NCBI GenBank assembly: GCA_041665505.1
Contig: JBAYIR010000001.1
Coordinates: 83,108-147,107, forward strand
Reading direction: 5' to 3'
DNA length: 64,000 nucleotides
From: Patescibacteria group bacterium
GTDB taxonomy: Bacteria; Patescibacteriota; Patescibacteriia; UBA1558; GWA2-36-10
Shown: one piece after another, positions 4,243 through 60,928 of the stretch
Numbering within the stretch: position 1 is the first letter of the stretch
Layout of the letters: each line of letters begins with the position of its first letter
Translations under genes and position numbers: made by a program
Notes under the pieces: model-generated
What the model saw: the letters and a program-made list of their open reading frames with translations, nothing else
Database searches by the model: none
What the model was told of the DNA's origin: nothing

Positions 4243-5805
4243 ATGTCAGATATAAATAAAAAAAATATGCCTTTGGCGCTTTTGATACTGGATGGTTGGG
4301 GTATTTGGAATAAAAAAGAAGGTAATGCCATAGCTCTAGCTCATACACCGGTTATAAATAATCTTTATGAAAAATATCCTAATACCTTACTACAGGCTTC
4401 GGAAAAATATGTTGGCTTACCAGCTAATCAGCCGGGTAATTCCGAGGCTGGGCATATGAATATTGGGGCGGGTCGAGTGATTGAGCAAGACGCGGTTATA
4501 ATTTCCAAGAGTATCAACAATGGCACTTTTTTTAAAAATCCAGCTTTTTTGCAAGCAGCTCATCACGTCAGTGAATATAATTCAGATGTCCATTTGATGG
4601 GGCTTTTGTCTGATGGTTCTAGCCCTCATTCGCACGATGATCATCTTTTATCATTGATTAGTTTTTTTCTTAGTCGGACCAAGCAAAATATTTATCTTCA
4701 TCTTTTTACAGATGGACGTGATTCGCCACCCTTTGCCGCTTTAAAAATTTTGAGTCAATATACTTCAATATTCAATAGCAATAGAGTAAAAATTGCTACT
4801 GTCATGGGGCGTTTTTATGCTATGGACAGAAAAAAATCTTGGCCTAGAACAAAATTAGCTTATGAGGCTTTGGTTATGGGGAAAGGTCATCAAGTTGAAA
4901 ATCCTATTGAAGCGGTAAATCAAGCTTATAATCGAGGGGAAAGTGATGAATATATTTTACCAACAGTCATAGTTGATAAAGATAAAAGTCCGATTGCTAC
5001 TATTAATAGTAATGATGCTTTAGTATTTTTTAATTTAAGATCAGATCGAGCTCGTCAATTGACCAAAATTTTTGGGCAAGAAGATTTTAACAAAAAAAAT
5101 CCAGGTTCATTTAAGTTGATCAAAAAAATTGAAAATTTATTATTTGTGGCTTTGACTGATTTTGGTCCAGATTTAGAAAGGGTGCTAACTGCTTATCCAG
5201 GTATTGATATTTCCGATACTTTACCCATGGCGCTTAAAGATATTAGACAGTGTTATATTGCGGAAACAGAAAAATATGCTCACGTTACTTATTTTTTTAA
5301 TGGTGGTTATGATCATCCAGTTGGTGGTGAAGATTGGGTCAATATTCCATCTAAAGATGTAGCTTCTTATGCCCAAAAACCAGAGATGAGTACTTTTGAA
5401 ATTGCGGAAGAGGTGATAAAATATGTTCAAGAGGATAAATACGATTTTATTATGGTCAATTTTGCTAGTCCAGATATGGTTGGACATACGGGAGATTTGG
5501 CAGCCGGAATAAAAGCAGTAGAATTTGTAGATAAGGCTGTCGGACAAATTATTGATGCTATTTTAGCTAAGCATGGTACTATAATTATTACTGCTGACCA
5601 TGGTAATGTGGAAGAAATGATTAACTTGGAGACCAAAGAAATTGATACTGAGCATTCCAAAAATCCAGTACCACTTATTATTGTTAGCCATGATAATTTT
5701 AAATTAGTGACTAATGGCCAATTAGCAAATATTGCTCCAACTATTTTAGATATTTTAGGCCTGCCTCAACCTAAATTAATGACTGATAAATCTTTAATTG
5801 TTTAA
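4243..5805 (+). CDS. gpmI: 2,3-bisphosphoglycerate-independent phosphoglycerate mutase (copy 1)
   Basis: 520 aa; LLILDGWG, AETEKYAHVTYFFNGG, SPDMVGHTG, ITADHGN motifs of iPGM. Confidence 0.9.
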   Translation: MSDINKKNMPLALLILDGWGIWNKKEGNAIALAHTPVINNLYEKYPNTLLQASEKYVGLPANQPGNSEAGHMNIGAGRVIEQDAVIISKSINNGTFFKNPAFLQAAHHVSEYNSDVHLMGLLSDGSSPHSHDDHLLSLISFFLSRTKQNIYLHLFTDGRDSPPFAALKILSQYTSIFNSNRVKIATVMGRFYAMDRKKSWPRTKLAYEALVMGKGHQVENPIEAVNQAYNRGESDEYILPTVIVDKDKSPIATINSNDALVFFNLRSDRARQLTKIFGQEDFNKKNPGSFKLIKKIENLLFVALTDFGPDLERVLTAYPGIDISDTLPMALKDIRQCYIAETEKYAHVTYFFNGGYDHPVGGEDWVNIPSKDVASYAQKPEMSTFEIAEEVIKYVQEDKYDFIMVNFASPDMVGHTGDLAAGIKAVEFVDKAVGQIIDAILAKHGTIIITADHGNVEEMINLETKEIDTEHSKNPVPLIIVSHDNFKLVTNGQLANIAPTILDILGLPQPKLMTDKSLIV

Positions 5806-5811
5806 AACAAA

Positions 5812-7389
5812 ATGAAAAGACCTCGACCAGTAGTGCTTGTTATATTAGATGGTTTTGGTATTGCGCCTCCTTCGAGAGCCAATGCTATTTCTTTGGCTAA
5901 AACCTCAAACTTTGATAAGTATTCTCAAAATTATCCAATTATGCCACTAGCAGCTAGTGGTGAAGCAGTCGGCCTTTCTTGGGGCGAAATGGGTAATTCT
6001 CAAGTTGGTCATCTTTCTTTGGGTTCTGGGCTAATTCCTTATCAAAATTTGCCTCGTATCACCAAAGCTATTACTGACGGAGAATTTTATAAAAATGAAG
6101 CTTTTCTTAAAGCTTGTGATAATGCTAAAAAAAGCGAAGCGGCTTTGCATATTATTGGTTTAGTCAGCTCCGGTGGAGTGCATAGCTACAATGAGCATTT
6201 GTATTCGCTGATAGAATTAGCTCACCAGCAAAAAGTGGAGAGAATTTTTATCCATGCTTTTTTAGATGGCAGGGATACCCCTTATAATAGTGGTATTAAT
6301 TTTATTAGTAAGTTGCAAGAAAAATTAAAAAATATAGGGACTGGTACTATTGCTAGTTTGAGTGGTCGTTTTTGGGCTATGGATAGAGATAATCGTTGGG
6401 ATAGGGTAGAGAAAGCTTGGCGAGCTATGGTAGACGGAGTATCTGATGAGAAATTTGAAGATCCTTTAGGAGCTATTCAAAAATCTTATGATAAAAAAGT
6501 ATATGATGAGGAATTTGTGCCAACAATAATATTGAATGATTTGGGTAAGCCCAAAGGTCTTATCAAAGATGGTGATAGCGTGATATTTTTTAACTTTAGA
6601 TCAGACAGGGCCAGGCAGCTTACTCAGGCTTTGACTTTACCAGGTTTTGAAAAATTCAAAAGACAGTATTTTAAAAATTTGGTGATGGTCACTATGACCG
6701 AATACGAAAAAGATTTGCCAGTGACAGTAGCCTTTCCACCTTTGGTCATTGAGATGCCTTTGGCTAGAGTTTTGTCTGAAGCAGGATTAAAACAACTTCA
6801 TATTGCGGAAACAGAAAAATATGCTCACGTTACTTACTTTTTTAACGGTGGTCAGGAAAAAATTTATGAAGGAGAGGATAGGGTACTAGTGCCTTCACCA
6901 CAAGTGGTCTCTTATGATCAAAAACCAGCTATGTCATCTAGAGAGCTTACTTCCAAGATAAATCAAGCAGTTAAAGAAGGGCAATATGATTTTATTGTAG
7001 CCAATTATGCCAGTCCAGATATGGTTGGACATACCGGCAATATCCAAGCGACTATAGAGGCTATAGAAATATTGGATCAACTAATTGGCGAATTAGTAGA
7101 TACAGTTTTGTCATACAATGGTTTGGTGCTTATTACCGCTGACCATGGTAATGCCGAAAATCTTTATGACTTGCAGAGTGGTGAGATAAACAAAGAGCAT
7201 TCCAATAATCCAGTACCATTTTTTATTATCGGTGATGATTTTGCTGGCAAGAGTGTCTTAGCTGGTAATGTCGGGACCGATCTCAGTCACGTTACACCAG
7301 TTGGTGTTTTAGCTGATGTGCCACCAACTATACTCAAAATTATGGGTATCAAAAAACCACCAGAAATGACCGGTAGTTCTTTGATTTAA
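5812..7389 (+). CDS. gpmI: 2,3-bisphosphoglycerate-independent phosphoglycerate mutase (divergent tandem paralog)
   Basis: 525 aa; VVLVILDGFG, identical AETEKYAHVTYFFNGG and SPDMVGHTG/ITADHGN motifs; otherwise diverged from copy 1. Confidence 0.9.
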   Translation: MKRPRPVVLVILDGFGIAPPSRANAISLAKTSNFDKYSQNYPIMPLAASGEAVGLSWGEMGNSQVGHLSLGSGLIPYQNLPRITKAITDGEFYKNEAFLKACDNAKKSEAALHIIGLVSSGGVHSYNEHLYSLIELAHQQKVERIFIHAFLDGRDTPYNSGINFISKLQEKLKNIGTGTIASLSGRFWAMDRDNRWDRVEKAWRAMVDGVSDEKFEDPLGAIQKSYDKKVYDEEFVPTIILNDLGKPKGLIKDGDSVIFFNFRSDRARQLTQALTLPGFEKFKRQYFKNLVMVTMTEYEKDLPVTVAFPPLVIEMPLARVLSEAGLKQLHIAETEKYAHVTYFFNGGQEKIYEGEDRVLVPSPQVVSYDQKPAMSSRELTSKINQAVKEGQYDFIVANYASPDMVGHTGNIQATIEAIEILDQLIGELVDTVLSYNGLVLITADHGNAENLYDLQSGEINKEHSNNPVPFFIIGDDFAGKSVLAGNVGTDLSHVTPVGVLADVPPTILKIMGIKKPPEMTGSSLI

Positions 7390-13088: not shown

Positions 13089-13229
13089 AGTTATAACAGG
13101 ATTGACAATATTTTATTTTTACTATATAATAATCACATAAATTCCTAGAAGGGCTAGGAAGTAAATAATTAAATAGCCAAAGACAGTAGGTTTCTAGCTA
13201 ATATTAGCCAAGAATTAAATATCCTGCCG

Positions 13230-13295
13230 AGGTAGAAAATTTTAAGTTTTTCAACTGTCTGCGCTATTTACGCAGATTTTTTTAATAAAAAATAT
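13230..13295 (+). promoter_or_regulatory. candidate rplJ (L10) leader with attenuator-like hairpin
   Basis: tctgcg-ctattta-cgcaga hairpin plus T7 run ending ~13289 just before rplJ ATG; L10 leaders are autoregulatory in many bacteria (established knowledge), identity here is inference. Confidence 0.3.
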
Positions 13296-23075: not shown

Positions 23076-23150
23076 GGCCCCATCGTCTAACGGTTAGGAC
23101 GTCAGGTTCTCAACCTGGCAATCAGGGTTCGATTCCCTGTGGGGTCACCA
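23076..23150 (+). tRNA. tRNA-Glu (anticodon CTC), CCA encoded
   Basis: Cloverleaf folded by hand: acceptor GGCCCCA/TGGGGTC, D-loop AACGGTTA, anticodon loop TTCTCAA, T-loop TTCGATT. Confidence 0.75.
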
Positions 23151-23151
23151 A

Positions 23152-23228
23152 GGGCATGTAGCTCAGTTGGTTAGAGCACTACATTCACATTGTAGGGGTC
23201 GAAGGTTCGAATCCCTCCATGCCCACCA
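23152..23228 (+). tRNA. tRNA-Val (anticodon CAC), CCA encoded
   Basis: Acceptor GGGCATG/CATGCCC, anticodon stem CTACA/TGTAG with loop TTCACAT, T-loop TTCGAAT. Confidence 0.75.
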
Positions 23229-23354
23229 TTCGACTCCGTTCTGCTCTGCAGAACTTCGCTCATGGTCTGCGACCACAAAAGTAAATTAAAATATAAGGTG
23301 TCGAATGTCCTGAGCGGAGTCCTGAGTTTATCGGAGGACGAAGTCGAAGGACAT
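23226..23354 (+). ncRNA. conserved structured tRNA 3'-trailer element, copy 1 (unknown family)
   Basis: Starts at the tRNA-Val CCA with TTCGACTCCG. Shares hairpin, ACTTCGCTCA/TGAGCGRAGT long-range pair, TGGTC/GACCA stem and CATTCGACTCC/GG(A/T)GTCGAATG closing helix with copies at 28003..27891(-) and 58824..58946(+). Followed by weak hairpin plus T7. Confidence 0.5.
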
Positions 23355-23383
23355 TAAAAATCAGTTTTATTTAAGGACTGTTT

Positions 23384-23430
23384 TTTTGTTGAAAAAAGAA
23401 GGCCGCCGCCACGTCAGACGTGGCGGCGGC
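23384..23430 (-). terminator. GC-rich palindromic terminator of cassette B1
   Basis: gccgccgccacg-tcaga-cgtggcggcggc 12-bp stem; A-run on plus (T-run on minus) at 23391-23397. Confidence 0.6.
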
Positions 23431-23445
23431 ATGAAGCGATATGAC

Positions 23446-24111
23446 CTAGCCGAGGTCGGCTTGGTCGAGGAGGCTCTTCTCGTATCTCTCGGCCACTTCG
23501 AGCTGATGCATCAGCCCATCGATGGCCATCTGGATGAGGTCTTCCCGGCAGGTCGGGACAGCTACAAAGCGTCTAGCCGCTTTGTCAGTTGGGAACATCA
23601 CAACCATCCACCAGCCTGCGGTAATTCCGCCGATTCCTTTGACCTTGCTACCGTAGGTGGTTGCCTTACCATCGACGATATCGTCGGGATTCTCCAAGCC
23701 GTAGCCATGGAAGCAGCGATAGTCGGGACCATGACGCTTGAATCGCAGGACCGCCACGACGGGTATTCTCACGTATTGATGGTACGTGGCAGCAGAGCAG
23801 CTGGTCGCCCTGACGATCTCGTTGTAGAACCCATCTTTGCGCTGAATTCTGATCAGCTGGTCAGAGAGGTCTCCCAGGACCGTCTTGATCTCCGAGCTGT
23901 CTGCAATCGGCCGTGCTATGACCGTGGTGGCCTGGGGGTTGACCTTGATGTCCAGCAGTGCAAAGCCGGCTTTTGCCAAGCTGATGGGGGACTCCGGATC
24001 GAGGGTGCCAGTAGCTACATCGTCTCTACCGATTCCCCAACGAAAACAATGATTGCCGTCGAGCCGTACCACACCAGTGGTGTAGATGGGGTCACAATTT
24101 TGTGCCTGCAT
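23446..24111 (-). CDS. high-GC hypothetical cytoplasmic protein (foreign cassette B1)
   Basis: Preferred start ATG 24111 with GGAGG(24123..24119)-7 nt-ATG, giving 221 aa; track start 24147 lacks SD. Natural-looking composition, unlike the plus-strand antisense ORF 23386..24153. No family recognised. Confidence 0.5.
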   Translation of the reverse strand: MQAQNCDPIYTTGVVRLDGNHCFRWGIGRDDVATGTLDPESPISLAKAGFALLDIKVNPQATTVIARPIADSSEIKTVLGDLSDQLIRIQRKDGFYNEIVRATSCSAATYHQYVRIPVVAVLRFKRHGPDYRCFHGYGLENPDDIVDGKATTYGSKVKGIGGITAGWWMVVMFPTDKAARRFVAVPTCREDLIQMAIDGLMHQLEVAERYEKSLLDQADLG

Positions 24112-24193
24112 TGGGAATCCTCCAGATTTAGTTGCATTTGTCTGCATTTATGATGCCTGCTGGCACCATTGTTCCTAGAGTTAGGAACAAAGT

Positions 24194-24222
24194 ATTATAC
24201 TATTATTTATTTTTTTTGTCAA
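24194..24222 (-). promoter_or_regulatory. perfect consensus sigma70 promoter TTGACA-17-TATAAT driving B1 (minus)
   Basis: plus attata 24194-24199, tgtcaa 24217-24222, 17-nt spacer counted. 5' UTR begins with 7-bp hairpin gttccta-actc-taggaac. Confidence 0.6.
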
Positions 24223-24235
24223 TGGTTGTTATATT

Positions 24236-24278
24236 TAAAGAAAATTAAGACCGCCGCGCATCCAGGGACGCGCGGCGG
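24236..24278 (-). terminator. GC-rich hairpin terminator of cassette B2
   Basis: ccgccgcgc-atccagggac-gcgcggcgg 9-bp stem, A/T-rich tract on minus side after hairpin. Confidence 0.55.
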
Positions 24279-24290
24279 CTACGGAGGATA

Positions 24291-24791
24291 CTACGGAAGT
24301 ATCTTCCAGACGGTAGGATTTCTTTTCCGGAAACTCTTGATGCTCTGCTCTCGGTGCATATTTTTGGCCAACACTACGGCCAAGATCAGAAGCATCAGAG
24401 CCATGAGGCTCTTGAACAGAGCCAAAATCCCTTGACCTAAAGGAGCGTGGATGGTGTGGACGGACATCGTCGCAACCAGTTTGTCTCCTTTGGTCTCGTA
24501 GACCATGAACTGGTACTGACCGAAGACGATCAGTGCTTCTTCGCCACTTTTGATGGTGGCGAGGTGCCGGCTGTTCTTGATGACCTTGAAGTAACACTCC
24601 TTGGAGTCGATGGTGACCAGCGCATGTTCGCTAATCTTGAAATCGACACTGTCGCCGTCCCGAAGGACAGCTCCAGTCACAGGAATCCGGTCATTCTCCG
24701 AACGAATATGGAGCTCGATAGCTCCTTCGCTCGCACGGACGACGGTGGTGGCACAGATCAGAATGGCGATGGTCAGAAGAAGAGTCTTCAT
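24291..24791 (-). CDS. high-GC secreted protein with N-terminal signal peptide and C-terminal TM anchor (foreign cassette B2)
   Basis: 166 aa; MKTLLLTIAILICATTVVRASEG signal peptide; C-terminal LMALMLLILAVVLA hydrophobic helix; AAAGGA SD 8 nt before ATG. Confidence 0.5.
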   Translation of the reverse strand: MKTLLLTIAILICATTVVRASEGAIELHIRSENDRIPVTGAVLRDGDSVDFKISEHALVTIDSKECYFKVIKNSRHLATIKSGEEALIVFGQYQFMVYETKGDKLVATMSVHTIHAPLGQGILALFKSLMALMLLILAVVLAKNMHREQSIKSFRKRNPTVWKILP

Positions 24792-24894
24792 GTCGCGAGT
24801 CCTTTCGCTTGCAGTTTCAGGTTCCTTCCCTCTTTATTTTAAAGGCTTTTGAGCCTTTTGTGACGTCAATGAGCTTGCTTTAAGCAATTATCTA

Positions 24895-49325: not shown

Positions 49326-49366
49326 TTGTTGATTGGTAGATCAATAGGCAGGCAGGGAGCAGCTTG

Positions 49367-58601: not shown

Positions 58602-58751
58602 TCCTTTTTGTATTTTAGTAGTTAGAAATTAATTTGTCGTCTGCCGTCATAGCTCCCCGCACAGTCCTGCGGACTTGACGGGGCGAGTGTTGGTAAAATA
58701 AAGAGTAATAGGCACTTTCTTAGTTTAGTATATAAAATAAGTTTATTATCT

Positions 58752-58823
<72 letters not shown>

Positions 58824-58826
<3 letters not shown>

Positions 58827-58946
58827 TTCGACTCCGTCCCGCTAAAGCGGGACTTCGCTCATGGTCTTCATCCTCACCGCCATAGGCGGTTCGGATTGCG
58901 ACCACTTTTCTAGGAGTCGAATGCCCTGAGCGAAGTCGAGGGGCAT
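58824..58946 (+). ncRNA. conserved structured tRNA 3'-trailer element, copy 3 (divergent, with compensatory stem changes)
   Basis: TTCGACTCCG then hairpin gtcccgc-taaa-gcgggac (vs gttctgc-tc-gcagaac in copies 1/2), conserved ACTTCGCTCA...TGAGCGAAGT pair, TGGTC/GACCA stem carrying an inserted ccgcc-ata-ggcgg hairpin, perfect 11-bp closing helix CATTCGACTCC/GGAGTCGAATG. Confidence 0.5.
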
Positions 58947-58952
58947 AATAAA

Positions 58953-58978
58953 ACCACCCTTGGGGGTGTTTTTTTGTT
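58953..58978 (+). terminator. terminator ending the tRNA-Thr plus trailer transcript
   Basis: ccaccc-ttg-ggggtg followed by T7. Confidence 0.55.
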
Positions 58979-59620: not shown

Positions 59621-60928
59621 ATGTTTAAAATGAACTTAAACAAGTACTTAATTCTTTCTTTAGTCATTCTAACGGGCTTTGGCTCATTAGTAGCTAATGC
59701 CAAGGAAGATTTAATTATTTCTGGTGATACAATAGCCGAAGTATTGACTGATGAACCTACTTTAGCAATTTGTGACCATAATGGTGATGGTTTTAGGAAT
59801 TTAAGTGATGTGAGTCTATTTGCCGAAGTTAAGGATTCCTTCTCTCTTTCTGAAATTGCTGAATATGCTGAACACAATCAAGATAACGATTGGTGTGAAG
59901 CACATTTTTGGCCTTCTGAAAGAGTAGAGGAAACTACAGCTACTTTGGCTATCTGTGACCACAATGGAGACCATGTCAGAAATTTAAGCGATGTAGCTAT
60001 GTTTGCTGAATGTGCTGAGACATTTGATGTCGATGGTAATGGTATCCATGATTTGTCTGATATATCTTTGTATACTTCAAACAACCAAGACGACACTTGG
60101 TGTGCTAGTGATTTTGATTGTGAGGCTATTCCCAATGCTGAGCCAGCTTATGTTACTGAAAATCTAGATGTAGTTTCTAGCACTTTAGCTATTTGTGACC
60201 ACAATGGTGATGGTTTAAGAAATCTAAGTGATGTCAGTGAATTTGCTTCTTGTGTTGATACTTTTGATGCCAATGGTGATAATAGACACGATCTATTAGA
60301 TACTAGTGCTTATGCTTCAAATAACCAAGATAACATTTGGTGTAGAGATAGCTTTGTTTGTGATGTGGCTACTAGTACAGAAGCTCTTTATAGTACTGAA
60401 GTGGTAGAAGAACCAGTTACTCCTTTAGCTATTTGTGACCACAATGGTGATGGTTTAAGAAATCTAAGTGATGTCAGTGAATTTGCTTCTTGTGTTGATA
60501 CTTTTGATGCCAATGGAGATGGTGTGCATAACTTAGAAGATGTAAGTGAATATGCTACAAATAAGTTTAGAACTGATACTTGGTGTACTACAACTTTTGA
60601 ATGTGTAGCTACTCCTAAATCTGTTTTAGCTGGTGGATCAACTTTTTTCAACCAACCAATATCTGAAATTGAAGGCGAAGTTTTAGGTGAAAAAATTGAA
60701 GCAGAAGAAGATGTTTTAGAAACAGAAGTTTGTACTTATAATACTCCAGATGCTGATATATTAGGAAAAACTGATTGGTCTGACGGTAGTTTGATTAGAG
60801 GTTGCGGACCAGAAATTTATGTTATTGAGAATCAACAAAAGCGTCATATCAGATCTTTAGAAGAATTATTCAATTATATTGGTCAAAGAATTAATAATGT
60901 TACTAACGATATATTGAGTTTATTCTAA
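59621..60928 (+). CDS. secreted protein with four dockerin/EF-hand-like Ca-binding repeat modules
   Basis: 435 aa; signal peptide MFKMNLNKYLILSLVILTGFGSLVANA; four ~80-aa modules LAICDHNGDGxRNLSDV...DxNGDGxHxLxD...NNQDxxWC; two modules identical at DNA level over >110 bp (60181-60300 vs 60421-60540). Confidence 0.6.
   Translation: MFKMNLNKYLILSLVILTGFGSLVANAKEDLIISGDTIAEVLTDEPTLAICDHNGDGFRNLSDVSLFAEVKDSFSLSEIAEYAEHNQDNDWCEAHFWPSERVEETTATLAICDHNGDHVRNLSDVAMFAECAETFDVDGNGIHDLSDISLYTSNNQDDTWCASDFDCEAIPNAEPAYVTENLDVVSSTLAICDHNGDGLRNLSDVSEFASCVDTFDANGDNRHDLLDTSAYASNNQDNIWCRDSFVCDVATSTEALYSTEVVEEPVTPLAICDHNGDGLRNLSDVSEFASCVDTFDANGDGVHNLEDVSEYATNKFRTDTWCTTTFECVATPKSVLAGGSTFFNQPISEIEGEVLGEKIEAEEDVLETEVCTYNTPDADILGKTDWSDGSLIRGCGPEIYVIENQQKRHIRSLEELFNYIGQRINNVTNDILSLF

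Follow-up and report, generated by a model that had tools for sequence, protein, structure and literature searches.

Structured elements on the CCA ends of Patescibacteria tRNA genes and their probable origin in a GIY-YIG nuclease cassette

Free-standing genes for GIY-YIG homing endonucleases are known from phage T4, where one of these seg genes, segB, lies in the tRNA gene cluster, and genes for homing endonucleases commonly reside within RNAs that remove themselves, group I introns among them. Group I introns, some of them with homing endonuclease genes, have been described in tRNA genes of Patescibacteria (PMC13011429). The UPF0213/Slx1-like GIY-YIG proteins have been presented as putative repair nucleases, inherited vertically, whose function is not known (PMC1564403). 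Here we analysed a 64-kb stretch of the Patescibacteria contig JBAYIR010000001.1 (the window, to which all positions below refer unless a locus is named), in which three tRNA genes carry copies of a structured element directly on their encoded CCA. We consider it rather probable that these three sequences are copies without an open reading frame (ORF), resembling miniature inverted-repeat transposable elements (MITEs), of the structured leader of a small selfish GIY-YIG cassette at the 3' ends of tRNA and transfer-messenger RNA (tmRNA) genes. Judged from the sequences collected, the full cassette appears to consist of the element (about 110-135 nt) and an ORF of about 80-105 aa of the UPF0213/prokaryotic Slx1-like type, with its left end on CCA in the candidate phyla radiation (CPR).

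ARAGORN found six tRNA genes in the window, all with an encoded CCA, and in three of them TTCGACTCCG follows directly 3' of the CCA and is continued by about 110-125 nt of related sequence. ARAGORN and Rfam both placed the three copies at the CCA of tRNA-Val, tRNA-Lys and tRNA-Thr, where an earlier note on this DNA had put them. Copy 1 (23227-23354, plus strand) adjoins tRNA-Val(CAC) (23152-23228, plus; CCA at 23226-23228; 70 bits with the Rfam tRNA model), copy 2 (28002-27891, minus) adjoins tRNA-Lys(TTT) (28077-28001, minus; CCA at 28003-28001) and copy 3 (58825-58946, plus) adjoins tRNA-Thr(GGT) (58752-58826, plus; CCA at 58824-58826). All three are solo copies in sense orientation, lying between the CCA and the terminator, and two of the five tRNA unit ends in the window have no element. 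A covariance model (R1), built from 15 copies, scored copies 1 to 3 at 109.4 bits (E 2.9e-22), 122.8 bits (E 2.6e-25) and 92 bits (E 2.7e-18) and found no further sense-strand copy in the window. Each copy had been said to be followed by its own intrinsic terminator. A consensus scan did call one past copy 2 (CAGCCAAAAGGCTG followed by a T-run, 27882-27863, minus; stem 27882-27869) and one past copy 3 (58955-58975, plus; stem 58955-58968 followed by a T-run), and after both of these come housekeeping genes. Past copy 1 we could read by eye only a weak terminator-like site (23362-23387, plus; CAGT...ACTG with a 4-bp stem and T7), which the scan did not call. No direct repeats of flanking DNA were found around the three copies. 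Upstream of copy 1, tRNA-Glu(CTC) (23076-23150, plus) is separated from tRNA-Val by a 1-nt spacer (23150-23152), and an Ala-Val pair in another locus (L038, 7266-7267) has a spacer of 0 nt; with spacers of 0-1 nt, 5' processing of the downstream tRNA would directly make the upstream CCA end.

The three copies share one architecture, a three-way junction (P1-P3) followed by a 3' hairpin (P4). P1 is formed by CATTCGACTCC and GG(T/A)GTCGAATG (23227-23237 with 23297-23307 in copy 1, 28002-27992 with 27932-27922 in copy 2, and 58825-58835 with 58913-58923 in copy 3). It is the end helix proposed earlier, with 11 bp, and residues C75 and A76 of the tRNA are its two outermost pairs. P2, a 7-bp hairpin, follows directly (23238-23254, 27991-27975 and 58836-58853); it reads GTTCTGC/GCAGAAC in copies 1 and 2 and GTCCCGC/GCGGGAC in copy 3, so the change is fully compensatory, as the earlier note had it, and its loops are TCT, TTT and TAAA (3, 3 and 4 nt), given there with a trivial error as tc, tt and taaa. 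The single-stranded ACTTCGCTCA (J2/3) joins P2 to P3 (23255-23262, written TTCGCTCA in copy 1; 27974-27967; 58854-58861). The P3 stem TGGTC/GACCA is kept throughout (23263-23275, 27966-27954, and 58862-58866 with 58900-58904), with a loop of 3 nt in copies 1 and 2 and an inserted hairpin of 33 nt in copy 3 (58867-58899, plus). In all three copies an AT-rich linker (23276-23296 in copy 1) leads to the second strand of P1. P4 has the form ATG(T/C)CC...GG(A/G)(A/G)CA(T/C) (23305-23354, 27923-27891 and 58921-58946), and its loop, which in copy 1 holds an additional inserted hairpin, starts with TGAG(C/T)G and is pairable with ACTTCGCTCA. The pairing of ACTTCGCTCA with a downstream TGAGCG stretch, another claim of the earlier note, can be drawn with TGAGCGGAGT in copy 1 (23311-23320, one G-U) and with TGAGCGAAGT in copy 3 (58927-58936); in copy 2 it covers only 8 bp of TGAGTGAG (two G-U). 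In a structural reading, the P1/P2 stack, continuous on the 5' strand, is the mirror image of an acceptor/T-arm stack. The fold of the window copies is not due to chance, because their folding z-scores are -3.8, -4.1 and -5.7 (copies 1 to 3), with none of 200 shuffles as stable for each, and the covariance-model E-values lie between 1e-18 and 1e-25.

The conservation of this fold was measured on 104 distinct sequences against shuffled and slid alignments. Over the full structure, 89.3% of cells were paired versus 78.4 ± 0.4% in shuffles, double-change cells numbered 411 versus 117 ± 12, and the covariation score was 0.331 versus 0.147 in shuffles and 0.035-0.086 in slid controls. Compensatory changes were found in 6/6 pairs of P2 and 4/4 pairs of P4, with partial covariation in P3 and in the inner and outer parts of P1. 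P1 pairing with C75-A76 of the tRNA was present in 102/104 sequences, and a divergent lineage keeps the helix as CACTCGATTC/GAATCGAGTG. The element structure is under selection, and the claim of a structured RNA with covariation, first made on three copies, is borne out on this larger set. On the sense strand G-U pairs outnumber A-C mismatches in P3 (37:19) and P4 (26:6), with no G-U excess in P1 or P2. The pairing between J2/3 and the P4 loop was kept in 88% of cells, mostly by wobble-preserving changes; a pseudoknot there is plausible and not proven, because J2/3 hardly varies in the sample. An alternative helix, in which the tRNA 3' end (N73-CCA-N) would pair with (R)TGG(Y) at the start of P3, was considered and dropped: N73 does not covary with the base after TGG, and the co-change of T+1 with A occurs in 5 sequences only, which may be one lineage.

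Comparison with described RNA families gave no match. Gathering-threshold scans with Rfam 15 of the window and 42 related loci returned only tRNA, tmRNA and the L10 leader, and scans of copies 1 and 3 at E<=10 returned only matches far below threshold, with no hammerhead, hepatitis delta virus-like, hatchet, pistol or twister ribozyme, group I intron or Drum among them. Neither ARAGORN nor the Rfam tRNA model found a tRNA-like cloverleaf or an acceptor/T-arm mimic in the element. Literature searches on the sequence strings, on GIY-YIG with tRNA, repeats or Patescibacteria, and on YhbQ/COG2827/UPF0213 returned no description of it, nor is it mentioned in the study of group I introns in Patescibacteria tRNAs (PMC13011429). 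The element thus remains, as first stated, outside any family that can be named.

To follow the element beyond the window, a three-part pattern made from its invariant stretches was run on a collection of species-representative genomes, where it matched at least 117 loci in many phyla. These matches form a superfamily of GC-rich repeats, TTCGAC-(2-4 nt)-GCTCAGG(RTGAC) and its reverse complement, usually as one long hairpin, in Acidobacteriota, Cyanobacteria, Clostridia, Bacteroidota, Bifidobacterium, Spirochaetota, Planctomycetota and others, mostly away from tRNAs. By its sequence the element belongs to this very large cross-phylum superfamily, within which it is part of a distinct subfamily marked by CGCTCATGG, P3 and a second copy of GGAGTCGAATG. 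The subfamily was found in CPR metagenome-assembled genomes (MAGs; Doudna-, Uhr-, Komeili-, Parcu- and Peribacteria) and in a few bins labelled Gammaproteobacteria. Although CCA is not part of the pattern, it precedes 15/15 subfamily copies among the matches listed. A scan of metagenomes for the subfamily gave at least 118 loci with at least 120 copies; 90 of the 120 listed copies adjoin a tRNA or tmRNA called by ARAGORN, covering 38 tRNA anticodon types besides tmRNA. The remaining listed copies mostly follow tRNAs cut by contig ends, tmRNAs missed by ARAGORN, or an element or duplicated tRNA 3' end upstream, and a few sit after other CCA-ending sequences. Pattern scans together with the covariance model brought the further copies in CPR genomes and metagenomes to more than 130. 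With this model the subfamily scores at 42-123 bits, apart from the general repeats, which stay below 40 bits, and more divergent copies were added behind further tRNAs. One 8-kb locus (L038) holds four copies, three directly on a tRNA CCA end and one 76 nt past tRNA-Leu. Viral contigs gave no match to the tRNA-fused pattern.

The wider set also linked the element to a protein. With a hidden Markov model (HMM) made from the GIY-YIG ORFs beside a few copies, we detected an ORF of this kind directly behind 33 of the 108 listed copies with enough downstream sequence, always on the strand of the element; the rest were solo. The ORFs are 80-105 aa long (typically about 85 aa), hold only a minimal GIY-YIG domain, and match Pfam GIY-YIG (PF01541) with E of 1e-12 to 1e-18. 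For the one ORF tested, the closest solved structures were the UPF0213 proteins 1zg2 and 1ywl, and the ORFs correspond to the stand-alone prokaryotic Slx1-like branch described in PMC1564403. In the reverse direction, we collected homologues of one cassette ORF, among which every match with a named organism was from CPR, and looked up eight in their contigs. In 8/8 cases the element lay between the CCA of tRNA-Ser(GCT/GGA/TGA) or tmRNA and the ORF (R1 32-75 bits), the R1 match beginning at CCA and ending just before the ORF. Proteins 65-77% identical to the query were found behind Ser-GCT, Ser-GGA, Ser-TGA and tmRNA, and the neighbours differed: recG, dnaG, a phosphoribosyltransferase gene and, in four cases, the arrangement smpB-tmRNA-element-ORF-infC. 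Because the reverse test succeeded in 8/8 cases with differing flanking genes, the element appears to be the leader of the GIY-YIG ORF, in a unit that has probably moved between tRNA and tmRNA loci. A stand-alone RNA gene private to this genome is not what the wider set supports; it points to a cassette leader with a GIY-YIG ORF behind about a third of the copies elsewhere. Of the options offered in the earlier note, the recognition end of a tRNA-targeting element came closest to the wider data. That note had also held that hundreds of degenerate copies would speak for a MITE rather than a structured RNA; hundreds do occur in public data, most of them ORF-less, yet they are sited at tRNA and tmRNA 3' ends and not scattered.

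Further signs of mobility came from comparison of copies and loci. Copies 1 and 2 are near-identical although they sit on different tRNAs (Val and Lys): aligned over the first ~93 nt they differ at 2 positions, both in loops, and the 98% identity once claimed for the pair holds for these 5' three quarters and not for the last ~35 nt (P4), which differ substantially. A related MAG (L036) shares the Tyr-Thr gene order with the window; its tRNA-Tyr carries a copy where that of the window has none, and its tRNA-Thr(GGT) carries a divergent variant, unlike the window tRNA-Thr(GGT). Contigs selected because a copy was present on them had 86 terminal tRNAs with the element and 81 without it. Nested and tandem copies occur as well. 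Of the features of a free-standing homing cassette, a defined target, the same cassette at different sites and unoccupied sites were found.

The CCA junction, the range of tRNAs, the covarying fold, the link to the ORF in both directions and the related cassettes at differing loci are direct observations. If they are read as the traces of a selfish cassette, the unit would pass as DNA from one tRNA or tmRNA gene end to another: probably its structure-specific GIY-YIG nuclease makes a break in the DNA at the tRNA gene end or close to it, and repair would then copy the cassette in. ORF-less copies would use the nuclease in trans or be remnants left after loss of the ORF. The element would be transcribed as a trailer of the tRNA, because it is located between the CCA and the tRNA terminator, and its fold could serve as the cis-acting part, as a recognition site for the nuclease, an insulator for tRNA 3' maturation, or both, while P4 might partly control translation of the ORF. 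In full copies P4 covers a purine-rich GAAGG(G/A), a possible ribosome-binding site in about half of the cassettes; the distance from this strand to the start codon is 2-12 nt in some cassettes and 30-260 nt in others, too variable for P4 to act as a general ribosome-binding-site trap, an idea that was dropped.

Several observations weigh against a cassette of this kind. No target-site duplication, no filled and empty pair of one site and no defined right end were found; a blast of the flanks for filled versus empty sites returned only identical duplicates and two cases of unrelated downstream DNA, and no conserved right end was seen past the ORF stop codon, the ORF sometimes running directly into a following tRNA gene. 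In the 64-kb window no GIY-YIG ORF or remnant was found, whether by motif search, by tblastn or by HMM, and for this genome homology of the element is the only basis of the presumed link to the nuclease. As a ribosome-binding site, P4 suits no more than about half of the cassettes. Four genomes with proteins of only 65-70% identity to the query keep the order tmRNA-element-GIY-YIG-infC, which could reflect long-term retention or domestication, and prokaryotic Slx1-like proteins have been treated as vertically inherited repair proteins (PMC1564403). The G-U excess on the sense strand and the wobble-preserving changes in the possible pseudoknot point to selection on RNA, because a purely DNA-level parasite would not need them. 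The G-U bias and the conserved tmRNA-element-ORF-infC order may thus leave room for an RNA-level or domesticated role. At a slim but real chance, the element and its UPF0213 nuclease form an RNA-level system in which the putative nuclease cuts the transcript at CCA|U, a self-removing trailer that would be the 3' counterpart of a self-splicing intron with its maturase. A cut by GIY-YIG chemistry ends in a 3'-OH, so the freed tRNA or tmRNA could be charged at once, and the same cut would split the mRNA off from the tRNA. The tRNAs with solo copies, including those of the window, would then depend on nuclease supplied in trans, and UPF0213, for which no assigned function was found in the literature searched, would gain its first.

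Set beside the described systems, a selfish GIY-YIG cassette shares features with several. Like the T4 seg genes, it is a small, patchily distributed selfish GIY-YIG ORF between genes of a tRNA region, without obvious host function; unlike them, its protein is an ~85-aa catalytic domain (Slx1-like/UPF0213) without a DNA-binding domain, a conserved structured leader of ~120 nt always precedes the ORF, the left junction is exactly CCA and ORF-less copies predominate. Short non-coding, hairpin-rich repeats that outnumber a coding version are also the mark of MITEs, REP/RAYT elements and IS200/IS605 derivatives, and here copies of 110-135 nt number more than 130, with the ORF in 33/108. With IS200/IS605 the element further shares insertion 3' of a short fixed sequence (CCA) without evident target duplication, and a flank that pairs inside the element (CA with TG). 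It departs from these groups in that no Y1/HUH or DDE transposase was seen beside it, although no dedicated TnpA/TnpB search was made, its partner is a GIY-YIG nuclease and its targets are tRNA and tmRNA ends, not any CCA. The inverted repeat P1 (11 bp) is not terminal on the right, where P4 lies past it, and target-site duplication is missing too. Tyrosine-integrase islands use the same target class, including tmRNA, and likewise leave the tRNA gene intact; they differ from the element, which has no integrase and no att repeats of the tRNA 3' part (none past the window copies), is of one type on 38 anticodon classes and tmRNA, and measures only 0.1-0.45 kb. Group I introns of the same phylum are structured, tRNA-associated, co-transcribed RNAs, sometimes with a nuclease ORF, whereas the element lies outside the tRNA, lacks a group I core (no Rfam match) and would have the 3' end freed with nothing spliced. 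The ORFs past the element belong to the same family as the stand-alone UPF0213/Slx1-like proteins 1zg2 and 1ywl (PMC1564403); in the literature searched we found no report that links this family to tRNA or tmRNA gene ends or to a conserved leader.

Other readings were weighed against a selfish cassette. The element could be an RNA module that serves the host in forming or stabilising tRNA 3' ends, its trailer fold marking or protecting the CCA end, for instance by offering a site to an endonuclease (RNase P, RNase III or RNase Z) or blocking 3' exonucleases, and the GIY-YIG genes using it as a landing pad. Its constant sense orientation between CCA and terminator, the pairing of P1 with C75-A76 in 102/104 sequences, the covariation with sense-strand G-U pairs and the excess of ORF-less over ORF-bearing copies would all suit such a module. 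So would the short tRNA spacers (Glu-Val in the window, Ala-Val in L038), which are compatible with RNase P acting at a downstream structure, a cut that would create the CCA end of an upstream tRNA. We nevertheless hold it improbable: most other terminal tRNAs on the same contigs lack the element, as do 2/5 unit ends in the window, related genomes differ in the tRNA occupied and the variant carried, the occurrence of near-identical copies on different tRNAs speaks for recent spread, ARAGORN and the Rfam tRNA model find nothing tRNA-like in the element, and an ORF accompanied by the element in 8/8 protein-side cases exceeds what a landing pad would lead one to expect. We give little credence to a new class of ribozyme that would cleave itself at the 5' end (CCA|U) and free the tRNA from the trailer or the GIY-YIG mRNA. 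The element is compact, conserved and pseudoknot-capable, with invariant joining sequences (ACTTCGCTCA and TGAGCG), its fold begins exactly at the junction that would need cleavage, and homing-endonuclease genes have the habit of sitting in self-removing RNAs. But no Rfam ribozyme model resembles it even at E<=10, self-cleavage would leave on A76 a 2',3'-cyclic phosphate that cannot be aminoacylated without further repair, and its invariant stretches are shared with the non-tRNA repeats of the superfamily, where they are plain arms of long hairpins.

Two further readings concern how DNA came to lie at these junctions. An attachment or recombination hotspot for unrelated cargo, like a tRNA-adjacent island, would account for the 55% GC island with two ORFs of unknown function directly past copy 1 and for ~480 nt that one locus (L161) has past the element and its close relative (L043) lacks. 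It is very unlikely in our view, since there is no integrase, the island is not bordered by direct repeats of the tRNA 3' end, terminators and housekeeping genes come directly past copies 2 and 3, and variable DNA is not consistently present. Hardly to be expected is a retro-origin, in which a reverse transcriptase on the element RNA would have switched template to the CCA-3'OH of a mature tRNA or tmRNA, as in variants of Neurospora retroplasmids. Here the junctions do fall on the ends of mature RNAs, the element at CCA76 and most of 16 tRNA fragments found upstream of tRNA genes at +1, and such a switch would also explain why those fragments begin exactly at +1. However, no reverse transcriptase was seen in the cassettes or inspected loci, though no search was dedicated to one, and because CCA is encoded in all six window tRNA genes the CCA junction is uninformative on this point. 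Duplications with an apparent start at +1 would also follow from repair-mediated homing between genomes, since conservation is confined to the tRNA part.

If a selfish cassette is indeed the source of the window copies, tRNA and tmRNA gene ends in the highly reduced genomes of CPR have been colonised by an apparently undescribed element made of a folded leader and a bare GIY-YIG domain. For the UPF0213/Slx1-like proteins, known from the structures 1zg2 and 1ywl, the element would supply a first genomic context and a candidate substrate. It also raises the question of how a tRNA matures when a stable helix begins on its CCA. A covariance model would improve CPR annotation at tRNA trailers, tmRNA ends and the start codons of small ORFs. 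In addition, the element offers a lead on the origin of the widespread GC-rich repeats (TTCGAC...GCTCAGG and reverse complement), which generate spurious ORFs in annotations.

Within the superfamily, the units TTCGAC-N(2-4)-GCTCAGG(RTGAC) and (GTCAY)CCTGAGC-N(2-4)-GTCGAA are near-identical in very distant phyla and often in tandem (L001-L117). TTCGACTCC is the T-loop/T-stem sequence of many tRNAs and GCTCAG a D-arm sequence; the superfamily may be derived from tRNA genes or be a mimic of them. Repeats of the general type in Spirochaetota, Geobacter, Bacteroidota and other phyla also flank GIY-YIG ORFs; the loci are L017, L040, L058, L059, L065, L103 and L115.

The fragments upstream of tRNA genes were found at 16 of 248 tRNAs, including the window tRNA-Lys and tRNA-Thr(GGT), each as an exact copy of the 5' part of the tRNA 40-360 nt upstream. 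They mostly start at or within a few nt of +1 (at least two also duplicate the 5' leader), end in the D loop or anticodon loop, and are connected with other GC-rich hairpins and in some cases with a second subtype of GIY-YIG. They count among the signs of DNA breakage at tRNA genes. Upstream of tRNA-Lys, a copy of positions 1-13 (28192-28180) is followed by a GC-rich hairpin (28192-28156 in all, minus), CCCGC..GCGGG(AC), that resembles P2 of copy 3. The motif CCNCCTTCGCTAAAGCTANGGNGGG of this feature also stands after a tRNA-Val fragment in L182, and its insertion CCCGCTTCGCTAAAGCTACGCGGG matches CCTCCTTCGCTAAAGCTATGGAGGG upstream of the tRNA-Val there; whether it is linked to the main element is uncertain. 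A perfect 20-nt palindrome, cctgcctgccggcaggcagg (28228-28209, minus), inserted at TA, splits a third 5' fragment of tRNA-Lys (28235-28203, minus; GCGCCTA ... TAGCTC); strings such as ggcaggcagg, comparable to this palindrome, also occur upstream of tRNA-Thr(CGT) near 49340. On the Thr side, a copy of positions 1-13 of tRNA-Thr(GGT) (58643-58655) continues into the GC-rich, hairpin-like CCCGCACAGTCCTGCGGACTTGACGGGG (58643-58684 in all, plus), a feature of the same kind. Together the Lys and Thr fragments appear to represent a second family of small insertions, flanked by the duplicated 5' part of the tRNA. An explanation of the upstream fragments as deleted units of tRNA and element was replaced, as they fit this second insertion type (16/248 tRNAs). 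Relatives carry a 35-nt double hairpin (CCACCGCC..GGCGGGGTGCCGCC..GGCGGCA) within truncated or disrupted tRNA copies, placed in the D arm or the anticodon loop (L036 6130-6240, minus; L093 838-905; L208 4490-4920, minus); in some cases a different GIY-YIG subtype (C-terminus ...IKKYKGGEAF..) comes next, and past it the same tRNA stands once more as an intact copy.

Directly past copy 1 lies the GC-rich island (23380-24850; ~55% GC versus roughly 28-40% in the flanks). On its minus strand are two ORFs without a Pfam, PHROG or PADLOC match, one of 233 aa (23446-24147) and one of 166 aa (24291-24791) whose N-terminus resembles a signal peptide. Both have perfect TTGACA-17-TATAAT promoters (24222-24194 and 24923-24895) inside a repeated AT-rich 39-mer, and both end in strong GC hairpin terminators (23430-23402 and 24279-24250). 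The island looks like recently acquired DNA beside a tRNA. In L161, the ~480 nt of extra DNA directly past the element (1773-2250, compared with 2835-2880 in L043) holds a 95-aa minus-strand ORF that is not GIY-YIG; the comparison of these two loci suggests that variable DNA collects preferentially on the downstream side of the element.

Elsewhere in the window, the ribosomal protein L10 leader was located at 13159-13291 (plus; Rfam 59.7 bits). A 58-nt stretch occurs at 5255-5312 and again, 1.5 kb away and with 93% identity, at 6800-6857, which may reflect two adjacent paralogous genes. At 59757-60564 there are four or five tandem coding repeats with a 240-nt period and CDHNGDG-like (calcium-binding or dockerin-like) motifs.

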